Shown here piece by piece: positions 20,825-21,766 of a stretch of 64,000 bases of DNA (position 1 is the stretch's first letter; each line of letters begins with the position of its first letter). The translations under genes and the position numbers were made by a program. The stretch lies in the IMG/VR virus record IMGVR_UViG_3300020576_002769, positions 17,985 through 81,984 of that record, one strand, 5' to 3'. Under the pieces are notes generated by a model. That model was given only the letters and a program-made list of their open reading frames with translations, did not search any database and was not told the DNA's origin. The stretch comes from a virus. Its lineage: Duplodnaviria; Heunggongvirae; Uroviricota; Caudoviricetes.

Positions 20825-20855
20825 TTTGTATATTAAAATATTTGTTATATCTTTG
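20825..20855 (+). promoter_or_regulatory. Bacteroidota sigma-A-type promoter (TTTG-N19-TATCTTTG) upstream of the mini-array leader/ORF
   Basis: TTTGtatattaaaatatttgttaTATCTTTGccc. A C10 homopolymer lies just upstream at 20798-20807. Confidence 0.55.
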
Positions 20856-20874
20856 CCCTAAAACTTATTCAGTT

Positions 20875-21110
20875 ATGACAAAATTAGAAAAAACTGCCAT
20901 TAATTGGTTAAATAAAAATTATGAGGATTTAACTCCGTTTGAAACGGAGAAATATCCTGATTATATTTTCTTTATGAAAAATGGTGAAGTAATCTTTGAT
21001 TATTATAAAAAAAATGGATGGGTTCAAATTAGTAATACCAAAATTTGGTCATTTTTTGAATCATTTTTTAGTATGAATTACCAACAAATACAGGACATCA
21101 CGAAGGTATG
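20875..21110 (+). CDS. hypothetical small protein, or leader of the CRISPR-like array
   Basis: ATG at 20875 is 19 nt after the -7 box. The track ORF 20842-21240 starts at TTG and reads through repeats 1-2 as VEEHYKLRVTTT because the 66-bp period keeps the frame open. The coding status of the 3' part is doubtful. Confidence 0.3.
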
Positions 21111-21331
21111 GGTGGAGGAACATTATAAATTAAGGGTAACAACAACCATTAAAGGTGAGAAAGTTATAAAGGATAAGGTGGAGGAACATTATAAATTAAG
21201 GGTAACAACAACCCAACAGGAATATACAATTATCAATTAGTCGGTGGAGGAACATTATAAATTAAGGGTAACAACAACTAGCAGGAGCCGCAATAGGAGT
21301 AGGATTAGGGTGGAGGAACATTATAAATTAA
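21111..21331 (+). CRISPR. cas-less mini-array with 4 x 36-bp repeats (last one truncated) and 3 x 30-bp spacers
   Basis: Repeats GGTGGAGGAACATTATAAATTAAGGGTAACAACAAC at 21111, 21177 and 21243 are identical. A fourth copy at 21309 matches only its first 23 nt. Spacers are CATTAAAGGTGAGAAAGTTATAAAGGATAA, CCAACAGGAATATACAATTATCAATTAGTC and TAGCAGGAGCCGCAATAGGAGTAGGATTAG. The period is exactly 66 bp. Confidence 0.65.
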
Positions 21332-21334
21332 ATT

Positions 21335-21766
21335 ATGAATGATAAACTAAAAAATATAATCATTAACTATCTACGTAAGAAGTATATGGGTTTGGACGTT
21401 AAACTATCTATTGAATATTCCAACTTAACTTCTTATTATTACATATTCGGAGTAAAGGATAATGATAGATGGCTCTCTTGGAAGGAAGTTGAAGAATACT
21501 CATACGTATTCGATATTCCTACCGTTCCGGTGTTGTTCCGGGGAGTTGTTAGTTCATATGAGGAACTAAAACAATTGGTAGAAGAACTCGTTAATCAACC
21601 ATCCGAATTAGGTGGTGAACGTGAAGGTGTTGTGGTTAGATTGGCCGGAACCTTTTATAATGATGAATTCTCTGATTGTGTTATGAAATGGGTAAGAAAG
21701 AATCACGTTAAAACTGATGAACATTGGACCCGAAATTGGAAAAAAGCAAATATTAAAAGATATTGA
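21335..21766 (+). CDS. Rnl2-family RNA-ligase-like C-terminal fragment (uncertain)
   Basis: YVFDIPTVPVLFRGVV...GGEREGVVVRLAGTF...KWVRKNHV resembles ligase motifs III, IV (EGvVvK) and V. No KxDG/KxHG adenylation motif is found. It starts right after the degenerate fourth repeat and overlaps pnk by 4 nt. Confidence 0.35.
   Translation: MNDKLKNIIINYLRKKYMGLDVKLSIEYSNLTSYYYIFGVKDNDRWLSWKEVEEYSYVFDIPTVPVLFRGVVSSYEELKQLVEELVNQPSELGGEREGVVVRLAGTFYNDEFSDCVMKWVRKNHVKTDEHWTRNWKKANIKRY

Follow-up and report, generated by a model that had tools for sequence, protein, structure and literature searches.

The array of 36-nt repeats in the stretch of viral DNA analyzed here (64 kb, referred to as the window) had been taken for an independent mini-array, but it forms the in-frame 3' portion of a small gene from a conserved family, in which the inserted segments are selected to be free of stop codons, and its repeat is the last 12 codons of the small gene itself. 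In the family, the 36-nt repeat together with ∼30 nt of new sequence accumulates at the gene-proximal repeat, while the far end keeps the older units and a 3'-truncated last repeat. We tentatively favor, at somewhat short of an even chance, the explanation that the locus is a phage-borne CRISPR-type array that grew by CRISPR adaptation, is fused in frame to the 3' end of the small gene, and produces an RNA that plausibly engages a host type VI effector. The locus comprises the following features:

20825–20855, plus strand: Bacteroidetes-type promoter, TTTG-N19-TAtcTTTG, 20 nt 5' of the gene's ATG
20875–21240, plus strand: small gene, with an N-domain (20875–21110) followed by repeat 1, spacer 1, and repeat 2; 198 homologues
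21111–21146, plus strand: repeat 1, 36 nt, encoding VEEHYKLRVTTT, the protein's native C-terminal segment
21147–21176, plus strand: spacer 1, 30 nt, the newest unit, present in the window only and missing from loci L003, L287, and L288
21177–21212, plus strand: repeat 2, 36 nt, identical to repeat 1
21213–21242, plus strand: spacer 2, 30 nt, with an in-frame TAG at 21238–21240; common to L003
21243–21278, plus strand: repeat 3, 36 nt, identical to repeat 1
21279–21308, plus strand: spacer 3, 30 nt, 50% GC, the oldest unit; common to L003
21309–21344, plus strand: terminal repeat, identical over 21309–21331 (23 nt), its 3' part replaced
21335–21766, plus strand: downstream ORF that begins with 24 aa derived from a divergent family paralog and continues as the C-terminal half of an RNA ligase

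The architecture reported in the preliminary description was reproduced in full. The sequence GGTGGAGGAACATTATAAATTAAGGGTAACAACAAC has three exact plus-strand occurrences in the window, starting at 21111, 21177, and 21243 with a period of 66 bp (the period also called by TRF), and the three 30-bp spacers are mutually unrelated, with no second match to any of them elsewhere in the window at up to 10 mismatches. Spacer 3 is indeed the GC-richer one, the three having GC contents of 27%, 30%, and 50% as compared to 30.6% for the window. The copy at 21309 matches the repeat exactly for 23 nt before diverging (11 mismatches in all 36 nt), and its earlier reading as a CRISPR terminal repeat agrees with host Cas13b arrays, whose terminal repeats retain the first 20–25 nt and lose the 3' side. 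The window thus contains what generally defines a CRISPR array, at least three near-identical repeats of 23–55 bp with unique spacers of similar length. In the repeat frame, the terminal repeat reads VEEHYKLNYE and then TGA (21340–21342), overlapping the ATG of the next gene at 21335.

The preliminary description had cautioned that an open frame runs through the repeats, and this caveat is real. From the ATG at 20875 the frame stays open across repeat 1, spacer 1, and repeat 2 until the TAG in spacer 2; after the TAG, the same frame is open through repeat 3, spacer 3, and repeat 4 until the TGA. Because the TAG breaks the frame, the first two repeats alone would be translated in the window. 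Recoding was considered as an explanation of the in-frame TAG and rejected, as reading TAG as a sense codon moves ORF coverage merely from 84% to 86%. The AlphaFold2 model of the small protein (pLDDT 92) has a helix, four strands, and two further helices, the last of which takes in the first four codons of repeat 1. Three residues (W79, E81, and E82) are invariant in the family, and the protein has no match in Pfam or PHROGs. A paralog without an array (7417–7692, minus strand) carries the C-terminal WFESHHKLNVKTLL, which is homologous to the repeat 1 peptide.

This gene-plus-array design is widespread in hundreds of uncultured phages. Nearly all of the 198 metagenomic homologues of the small protein end in an array of like kind, DNA arrays were present in most of the ∼100 loci retrieved via protein homology, and a loose repeat pattern identified more than 119 IMG/VR loci, nearly all with a related ORF upstream. 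The loci come from freshwater, marine, and groundwater samples and often number several per genome; three subfamily proteins had no tblastn match among GenBank phages. In part of the family the array is followed by a conserved C-terminal tail, older arrays in other subfamilies have diverged repeats and 63- or 69-nt units, and no conserved partner or processing gene was found near related loci.

Comparison of close relatives shows how the arrays grow. The unit order is W1, S4, S5 in the window, Sa, Sb, Sc, S4, S5 in L003, and N1, Sa, Sb and onward in L287 and L288, a nested series in which the distal spacers are common and the differences are units added next to the gene. In at least eight further lineages differences are likewise limited to the gene-proximal end, so that, as in CRISPR arrays, units are gained at the leader end and older units are common to relatives. 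These arrays are still gaining units in natural populations. Together with the perfect repeats, unrelated spacers, and truncated last repeat, this polarised gain bears out the CRISPR-like behavior originally proposed.

Unlike the spacers of ordinary CRISPR arrays, which are non-coding and unconstrained in frame, those of the phage arrays show a frame-specific depletion of stop codons. Only 19 of 149 family spacers contain an in-frame stop (76 ± 6 expected), and a second count gave 43 of 212 (108 expected), whereas spacers of host arrays are not depleted (58 of 129; ∼62 expected). The array is therefore selected family-wide to stay open in the gene's frame. The degree of constraint differs between subfamilies: in subfamily 1b, 97% of spacers are a multiple of three and 2 of 72 have stops, and in subfamily 3 all 46 spacers are 30 nt long and none has a stop, while in the window's subfamily only 51% of spacers preserve the frame and stops occur in 22%. 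Spacers of 29–32 nt are common in the family. There is a slight excess of E, D, G, and K in the variable peptides, whose composition is near that of random translation, and we saw no position-specific pattern. As far as can be told, such a frame-specific purge of stop codons is unprecedented for repeat-spacer arrays, and our literature search found no report of a conserved gene whose translated 3' end is such an array.

A second constraint acts on the repeat. In a column-wise codon test, used because pairwise codon identity (75% in the repeat vs. 72% in the N-domain) was too coarse, the repeat's Val is GTG in 32 of 32 repeats (16% family usage), its Glu is GAG in 74% (14% usage), and its Thr is ACA in 31 of 31 (52% usage); the Lys three codons upstream is AAG in 81% (22% usage). 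Paralogs without an array lack the repeat-typical nucleotides. This unusual codon choice argues for a constraint at the nucleic acid level beyond coding.

The repeat was earlier said to resemble Cas13b repeats in its 3' half, and comparison with arrays adjoining cas13b supports this: the last 16 nt match at 13 positions (counted from the sequences), and overall identity is 20–25 of 36, the best match (25/36) being a Chitinophaga Cas13b repeat, although 10–11 repeat positions were preset by the search pattern used to collect the host repeats. At the 25 positions outside that pattern the best match scores 14, which was reached by 210 of 50,000 shuffles. VI-B repeats share 19–29 of 36 positions among themselves. 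However, identity to VI-A (Cas13a) repeats is 20–23 of 36 and to a Cas12f-like-associated repeat 22 of 36; the similarity does not appear to be type-specific, and the VI-B assignment of the preliminary description is weak. By sequence comparison, geometry and repeat do fall within the class-2 ‘GTTGGA...ACAAC’ group, with the best match to type VI-B of Bacteroidota. Host arrays with confirmed Cas13b have 36-nt repeats and spacers of 29, 30, and 31 nt in 12, 114, and 3 cases, respectively, so the 36-nt repeat, ∼30-nt spacer, and 66-nt unit of the window conform to VI-B, but VI-A and Cas12f-like arrays with the same geometry were found as well. An internal hairpin is a conserved feature of VI-B repeats (10.1101/092577). 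The window repeat has neither this hairpin nor the poly-U loop: it folds at −1.3 kcal/mol (z −0.45), as compared to −11.2 kcal/mol (z −3.4) for the B. zoohelcum repeat, whose sequence was verified from its genome. Its ends (GGUG...CAAC) form three of four pairs, as compared to 5'-GUUG/CAAC-3' in VI-B; other subfamilies end in GUUG...CACC or GGUG...CACC, without consistent covariation, and some have a weak stem in the repeat.

Two apparent parallels were discarded. The 12-repeat array on a 222-kb viral contig (L190) seemed to be a canonical VI-B array, but it has a Cas12-like effector with a TNB domain instead, and a Fluviicola repeat matching at 24 of 36 positions proved to be antisense relative to its cas13b, the sense repeat matching at 19. 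No repeat identical to the phage one was found in host genomes, and an Rfam search at a permissive threshold returned neither CRISPR-DR nor any other credible family at the locus.

Neither cas genes nor spacer targets were detected. As had been stated before, the large ORFs of the window include no cas gene; none lies within 10 kb of related loci, and no Cas13b relative was detected in IMG/VR, so that the association with cas genes that characterizes CRISPR systems is absent over this range. The search for targets proposed at the outset gave none, in databases poor in the relevant communities: 313 family spacers had no match in 2.4 Mb of related phage loci outside the arrays (strong matches in these loci came solely from the arrays themselves and from a trailer unit duplicated in L039), and 75 spacers had no credible protospacer among GenBank phages at E≤10. 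In IMG/VR, the 24-nt core of spacer 1 had no exact match and the 22-nt core of spacer 3 matched solely the same array of a related contig. Conversely, host Cas13b spacers matched the phage loci only partially and at chance level.

In the explanation we favor, a CRISPR adaptation complex, in the simplest case host Cas1-Cas2 acting in trans, would take the 3' end of the gene as a leader-repeat junction and insert units there. A single transcript would carry gene and array, and a host type VI effector might bind, and perhaps cut, the repeat-containing RNA, which could be either a decoy that dilutes host guides or a source of phage-borne guides. The frame constraint would follow from the position of the array within a translated gene, the stop codon of which overlaps the beginning of the next one. 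The depletion of in-frame stops and the two strictly in-frame subfamilies, however, point to a protein-level role that is superfluous in a guide or decoy model. The same insertion could instead serve the protein, with each unit adding 12 constant and ∼10 random residues to a hypervariable C-terminal tail, and the CRISPR-like look of the repeat being kept because it makes the site an insertion substrate. We regard this as possible but doubtful. It would account for the stop depletion in phage but not host arrays, for the near-strict framing of subfamilies 1b and 3, for the tail conserved past the array in part of the family, for a predicted fold that takes in repeat 1, and for the slight E/D/G/K enrichment; it fits poorly with the loose framing in the window's own subfamily, with an ORF that already stops in spacer 2, with near-random and patternless peptides, with the codon choices of the repeat, and with the lack of a conserved partner or processing gene nearby. 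With similar reserve, we raise the possibility that a phage gene family may have co-opted CRISPR-adaptation-type insertion to write random 10-residue C-terminal cassettes, a cassette-based protein diversification in which every unit is in frame and stop-free in several subfamilies, or alternatively that the gene end may be an evolved decoy target for the host spacer integrase.

A ‘spacer sink’ is unlikely: a gene end mimicking a leader-repeat junction would divert host spacer integration into phage DNA, leaving arrays as footprints from which gene-breaking insertions are purged. Several copies per genome, polarised growth, repeat-like codons retained against codon bias, the purge of units with stops, and the failure to find spacer targets all agree with such diversion, but spacers acquired in an infected cell should often be phage-derived, and the finding that 0 of 313 match the related loci outside the arrays runs against a rough estimate of several self-matches, albeit for genomes covered in part. 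Equally improbable is the main idea of the preliminary description, in which a working mini-array would guide host Cas13b, through its spacers, to competing phages or plasmids. Other phages are known to carry arrays that rely on host effectors (PMC7162821), and geometry, repeat class, and fast spacer turnover are compatible with one here, yet ∼300 spacers yielded no protospacer in related loci or GenBank phages (or in IMG/VR for two window spacers), the window repeat has no hairpin, and the collateral RNase activity of Cas13b would presumably hurt the resident phage too. As for an ordinary protein tandem repeat arising by slippage or unequal crossing-over, or replication-origin iterons, either without any link to CRISPR, the 66-bp period is divisible by three and the frame is open, and in older arrays the repeats have diverged and the units measure 63/69 nt. 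Duplication, however, should copy the spacers too, whereas the repeats are 100% identical and the spacers unrelated; units related over their whole length occur only in old arrays of other subfamilies. New units at one end only and the common 29–32-nt spacers also argue against both, and several gene-embedded copies per genome in hundreds of phages are unlike origin iterons, making this explanation very improbable.

Each known system resembles the locus in part. Type VI-B arrays of Bacteroidota share the 36-nt repeat, spacers of 29–31 nt peaking at 30, a repeat beginning G(G/T)TGGA and ending AGGGTAAC-ACAAC, a 3'-truncated last repeat, and leader-side spacer gain; here, in contrast, no cas13b lies nearby, the repeat has lost its central hairpin and poly-U loop, a protein-coding gene serves as the ‘leader’, the stop-depleted array is itself translated, and VI-A and V-F-like repeats are nearly as similar. 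In multi-core RiPP precursors (e.g., cyanobactin PatE), a conserved N-terminal part precedes identical sequences flanking hypervariable short peptide cassettes. The layout here is alike, but no maturation enzymes are nearby, many arrays are frame-broken, and cassette gain is polar and CRISPR-like. Nivala et al. (2018) reportedly observed rare off-target spacer integration in host chromosomes under Cas1-Cas2 overexpression (‘neo-CRISPR’). There, too, a native leader-repeat-like sequence seeds an array; in our case the repeat is the gene's own C-terminal coding segment, and a phage gene family carries the array as a conserved feature, under selection and in multiple copies. Virus-borne mini-arrays are said to have been described by Medvedeva et al. 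(2019). Al-Shayeb et al. (2020, PMC7162821) described compact arrays on large phages that lack adaptation and interference genes and presumably rely on host Cas proteins. The locus resembles these in its compact array, large phage, and lack of such genes, but theirs are intergenic, match host repeats, and have spacers that match other phages, while here the searches gave neither a host-identical repeat nor a target, and the array forms the in-frame end of genes in a conserved family. RNA anti-CRISPRs (Racr, or solitary repeat units), which are solitary, phage-encoded, non-coding small RNAs, were found for all CRISPR types except type VI (PMC10651486). Like Racr, the phage repeats mimic CRISPR repeats and could sequester a Cas effector; unlike Racr, they are neither solitary nor non-coding and form growing arrays inside an ORF, with the gene's promoter upstream. 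Orphan CRISPR arrays on phages are already known, and type VI mimics are absent from the largest survey of viral repeat mimics (PMC10651486). The family offers a handle on how Bacteroidota phages deal with RNA-targeting Cas13b immunity, on whether host adaptation enzymes act on phage DNA, and on whether CRISPR-type integration serves non-immune purposes.

The upstream pattern TTTG-N19-TAtcTTTG, which we take to be the Bacteroidetes promoter consensus, occurs 21 times in the window as compared to 3.7 ± 1.8 times in shuffled sequence (at least 21 in 0 of 100 shuffles), in support of the host-type promoter earlier placed at 20825–20855, for which an E. coli-type promoter scan was uninformative. 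Its −7 box and the 5' UTR are kept in L003 and L287, and the sequence farther upstream is not. A blastn search of GenBank phages with the locus as query matched the RNA-ligase and Pnkp genes alone. The downstream ORF matches the Pfam RNA_ligase profile at positions 78–171 only, whereas the RNA ligase is full-length (213–214 aa) in L001 and L002 and the divergent paralog is intact in L003; the ORF at 21335–21766 is a deletion product and delimits the array at its distal end.

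In the window, a repeat-spacer array with CRISPR geometry and CRISPR-like polar growth forms the in-frame 3′ part of a conserved phage gene. A Bacteroidetes-type promoter precedes this gene, the array is under constraint as protein and also as nucleic acid, and no cas genes lie nearby. The features concerned are as follows.

20825-20855 (+): promoter element, TTTG-N19-TAtcTTTG, of a pattern enriched in the window
20875-21240 (+): small gene, ATG at 20875 to TAG at 21238-21240, the start chosen being that of its homologues
21111, 21177 and 21243 (starts, +): repeats 1-3, GGTGGAGGAACATTATAAATTAAGGGTAACAACAAC, with an exact 66-bp period
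21309 (start, +): repeat 4 (terminal), first 23 nt identical, divergent after

As the preliminary description had stated, three perfect 36-bp copies alternate with mutually unrelated 30-bp spacers, and the fourth copy degenerates; spacer 3 is indeed GC-rich (50%, with 27% and 30% for spacers 1 and 2 and 30.6% for the window). No further copies of spacers 1-3 were found within the window at ≤10 mismatches. Its caveat that an ORF reads through the repeats was also correct: the small gene, whose start the ORF lister places further out at TTG 20842, continues through repeat 1 (encoding VEEHYKLRVTTT), the first spacer, and repeat 2 before ending at the TAG inside spacer 2, and the same frame is open over repeat 3, spacer 3, and repeat 4 until TGA 21340-21342, which overlaps the ATG of the next ORF (21335).

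The proposed promoter was borne out, as TTTG-N18-21-TAnnTTTG has 21 matches in the window versus 3.7 ± 1.8 in shuffles; an E. coli-type promoter scan was uninformative. The 21 sites have an extended common consensus, TTTGGTGGnTTAAAAAnnTnGTnGTATCTTTG, and may thus be a class of phage promoters recognized by a Bacteroidetes-type sigma factor. We take the element upstream of the small gene to be of the Bacteroidetes promoter type, and it thus points to a Bacteroidota host. Examples of the other promoter-like sites are:

10307-10337 (-)
13038-13069 (-)
24315-24345 (+)
24692-24722 (+)
32455-32485 (-)
44375-44405 (-)

Just 5′ of the array gene's promoter lies a run of 10 C (20799-20808) followed by GGTTTATCAATA, and similar CCCCGGATAATCAATA elements lie 5′ of family-member promoters at two other loci (L039 and L040).

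The small protein has 198 metagenomic homologues, and its family is absent from GenBank phage records. The contigs with homologues reach 505 kb, and many encode several. Nearly all homologues end in W-VEEHYKLRVTTT and then 1-5 rounds of ∼10 random-looking residues plus the 12-residue segment; in the alternative ending, WRNITN*, a 29-nt spacer has shifted the reading of this repeat by one base. Of about 100 protein-retrieved loci, most have an array, with 1-7 spacers, where the gene ends, including members only 30-45% identical, in which the repeats have co-varied (e.g., GTTGGAAGAGACCTATAATTTAAAGGGTCTAACACC). A loose repeat pattern matched at least 119 IMG/VR loci, and almost all IMG/VR loci among the matches listed are preceded by an ORF ending ...IWSxxExxF...EIQxxxxxW. 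The finding is wider than the mini-array first described: a widespread phage gene family ends in translated, actively growing CRISPR-type arrays. The window also encodes divergent, array-less paralogs of the N-terminal domain (HMM E 3e-11 to 1e-3).

47837-48151 (-): paralog
26248-26619 (-): paralog
26607-27002 (-): paralog
9062-9391 (-): paralog
7417-7692 (-): paralog ending ...EWFESHHKLNVKTLL* (WFESHHKLNVKTLL)

Because the end of the last of these is homologous to the repeat-encoded peptide, the repeat's 12 residues are a native part of the protein. An AlphaFold2 model of the N-terminal domain is confident (pLDDT 92), and its last helix takes in the first four codons of repeat 1; W79, E81, and E82 are invariant in the family, and a search with the model returned no informative fold match.

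Two elements are conserved across many diverged arrays (L019/L020, L023, L026, L027, L052, L053, L055, L060, and L068), namely a "spacer", ACAGGAGTTCGGTTGGCGTCTACAAAAACA, with a few substitutions, and the block VEEQYKEIQTTN-NQLQFYSEKD-VEELYEQKTNGK at the trailing end; either they are trailer units of ancient origin or they encode peptide segments under functional constraint. At one locus (L103, 737-1170) there is also a degenerate array of 66-nt period on the opposite strand, with six mutually diverged copies of a unit ∼GTTGAAGAYACCATTCAAAATGGGGT...; it has the look of an aged, protein-like array related to the family repeat.

The arrays differ at the end nearest the gene. A locus whose gene is 100% identical to the window's (L003) has five spacers, three of its own in gene-proximal position followed by window spacers 2 and 3, and window spacer 1 is unique to the window in this comparison. 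Loci from two further samples (L287 and L288), encoding a protein 95% identical to the window's, have one additional new spacer ahead of the first two of L003. Gene-proximal differences with common distal units were seen in at least eight other lineages of several subfamilies (e.g., L017/L101, L091/L099, L102/L103, the tandem copies in L039, L117/L209 [twice], L132/L148, and L151/L155). Such gene-proximal gain of units is the signature of CRISPR adaptation at the leader-proximal repeat. Slippage or unequal crossing-over is disfavored because spacers would be copied too, and it is very improbable that the array is a plain protein tandem repeat or a set of origin iterons.

The spacers show a coding constraint. 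Stops in the frame of the preceding repeat occur in 19 of 149 unique spacers from protein-retrieved loci, versus 61-82 for the other five frames and 76 ± 6 in shuffles. Across the superfamily, 43 of 212 spacers between two full repeats have stops (108 expected), whereas the same analysis of host Cas13b arrays gave no depletion (58 of 129 versus 62). The subfamilies differ as follows.

VEEHYKL (the window's type): 51% of spacers a multiple of 3; 22% with stops versus 50% expected
LEE/LDE: stops in 38% versus 52% expected, almost relaxed
VEEHYK[MVK]: 97% in frame; stops in 2 of 72
VEEVLN: 46 of 46 spacers are 30 nt; 0 stops

Two subfamilies tolerate frame-breaking spacer lengths although in-frame stops have been purged, a puzzling contrast. 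Among all phage arrays, in-frame TAA (23 versus 71-120 in other frames) and TGA (21 versus 48-103) are strongly depleted but surviving TAG barely so (28 versus 35-43); TA+G codons arising at the spacer-repeat junction may explain part of this effect, and there is no sign of TAG recoding in the window. In composition, the variable peptides come close to what random translation would give. Within the repeat, codons deviate from family usage toward the CRISPR-repeat consensus: GTG is used for Val in 32 of 32 (16% in the family), GAG for Glu in 74% (14%), ACA for Thr in 31 of 31 (52%), and GTT for the second Val in only 7% (63%); for the Lys three codons 5′ of the repeat, AAG is used in 81% (22%). 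The array-less paralog is without these nucleotides. The sequence is therefore under constraint at two levels, that of the protein and that of DNA or RNA.

By published definition (10.1101/092577), a VI-B repeat is 36 nt long, its ends (GUUG/CAAC) are complementary, and it has a poly-U loop; spacers are 30 nt and the crRNA is 66 nt. Scanning host genomes (one per species) with the same repeat pattern returned 53 loci; neighboring Cas13b proteins were those accepted by a Cas13b model (E 1e-193 to 1e-279), and their repeats included the following.

Bergeyella zoohelcum: GTTGGAACTGCTCTCATTTTGGAGGGTAATCACAAC
Chitinophaga sp. S165: GTTGGAGTAACCTGTGATTTGTAGGGTAACGACAAC
Crocinitomicaceae MAG: GTTGGAGACCCCCTCGATTTGTAGGGTAACTACAAC
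Further Cas13b-adjacent arrays: Chitinophagaceae, Ginsengibacter, and Fluviicola MAGs

The window repeat is identical to these at 20-25 of 36 positions (19-29 among themselves), part of which follows from the 10-11 positions predetermined by the search pattern; over the 25 positions left free, 14 agree in the best case, a score reached by 210 of 50,000 shuffles. By manual count, 13 of its final 16 nt agree with the Chitinophaga and Crocinitomicaceae repeats. Host Cas13b spacers are 29, 30, and 31 nt long in 12, 114, and 3 cases, like the 30-nt window spacers, and in host arrays the terminal repeat keeps its first 20-25 nt but not the 3′ remainder, as at 21309. However, Cas13a repeats (20-23 of 36) and a repeat adjoining a Cas12f/TnpB-like protein (22 of 36), retrieved with the same pattern, are nearly as similar; the window repeat does not fold stably (-1.3 kcal/mol, z -0.45); and no host genome scanned had an identical repeat, the only phage-type match lying on a 1.8-kb contig in the bin of a Flavobacterium MAG. 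On these sequence comparisons the repeat is class 2 and type-VI-like, and VI-B is a best guess from the top match and host phylum, not established. The Cas-less, Cas13b-like mini-array of the preliminary description is thus partly supported: the geometry of host cas13b arrays and the lack of nearby cas genes stand, but the repeat similarity is not specific to the type, no host genome scanned has an identical repeat, and the array is part of a gene.

One huge-phage contig (L190, IMGVR_UViG_3300012007_000007, 222 kb) has a 12-repeat array, GGTGGACCCACCCCCATTTTGAGGGGTGACTACACC, at 69-829, and the gene directly next to it (845-3415) encodes 856 aa with a TNB domain of Cas12f1-like type; this is probably a phage-encoded type V system.

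VI-B loci are described as lacking cas1 and cas2 of their own, adaptation being supplied in trans. A CRISPR adaptation complex, in the simplest case that of the host working in trans, may likewise have inserted the units, and it would take the gene's 3′ end for a leader-repeat junction; insertions would be tolerated within the gene because 36 + 30 = 66 is a multiple of three. The repeat-bearing transcript could plausibly engage a host type VI effector, as a decoy or a source of guides. We tentatively favor this combination of insertion and effector engagement, at a little less than an even bet. The main alternative keeps the insertion mechanism and places the function in a hypervariable protein tail; the two strictly in-frame subfamilies speak for it, but the subfamily of the window's array, and the frame broken in the window itself, speak against it, and we regard it as possible but unlikely. 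That the gene end is a sink for spacers, a decoy for the integrase, seems improbable, and we give equally little credence to guides directed at competitors. The suggested search for spacer targets came back empty, with no protospacers in the window, 2.4 Mb of related loci, GenBank phages, or IMG/VR (cores of spacers 1 and 3), and host Cas13b-array spacers did not match these phage loci. Neither Cas13b in IMG/VR nor an Rfam match was detected. A survey of Racrs (RNA anti-CRISPRs) reported viral repeat mimics for every CRISPR type but type VI (PMC10651486). We found no earlier description of such gene-end arrays in the searchable literature, and there is a substantial chance that they are a categorically new thing.

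The genes neighboring family loci are ordinary phage genes. Those after the window array are:

21335-21766 (+): 24 N-terminal residues of a divergent family paralog joined to a C-terminal RNA ligase half
21769-22680: intact Pnkp (polynucleotide kinase-phosphatase), after the truncated ligase ORF

The ligase remnant covers only positions 78-171 of the Pfam RNA_ligase profile, the catalytic-lysine half being absent. Because the ligase is full-length in the two nearest records in GenBank (L001 and L002, from uncultured huge phages with 634 and 642 kb), and because L003, the window's closest relative, has an intact paralog, a deletion just past the window array is indicated. Neither cas-like domains, as the preliminary description had noted of cas genes, nor tRNAs were found in the 64-kb window, and its longest ORF is ≤679 aa.

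Otherwise unrelated window ORFs have a common N-terminal motif, MNLQENI(Y/H)RIK.(M/L)MG or ...IKRILREE:

20041-20523 (-)
23074-23559 (-)
18866-19792 (-)
22714-23070 (-)

The motif also prefixes a family member elsewhere (P0105), and the ORFs sharing it suggest that N-terminal modules are shuffled in this phage group. A separate 30-nt tandem repeat (15772-15875; 3.4 copies, 97% identical) lies within ORF 15008-16093 (-).
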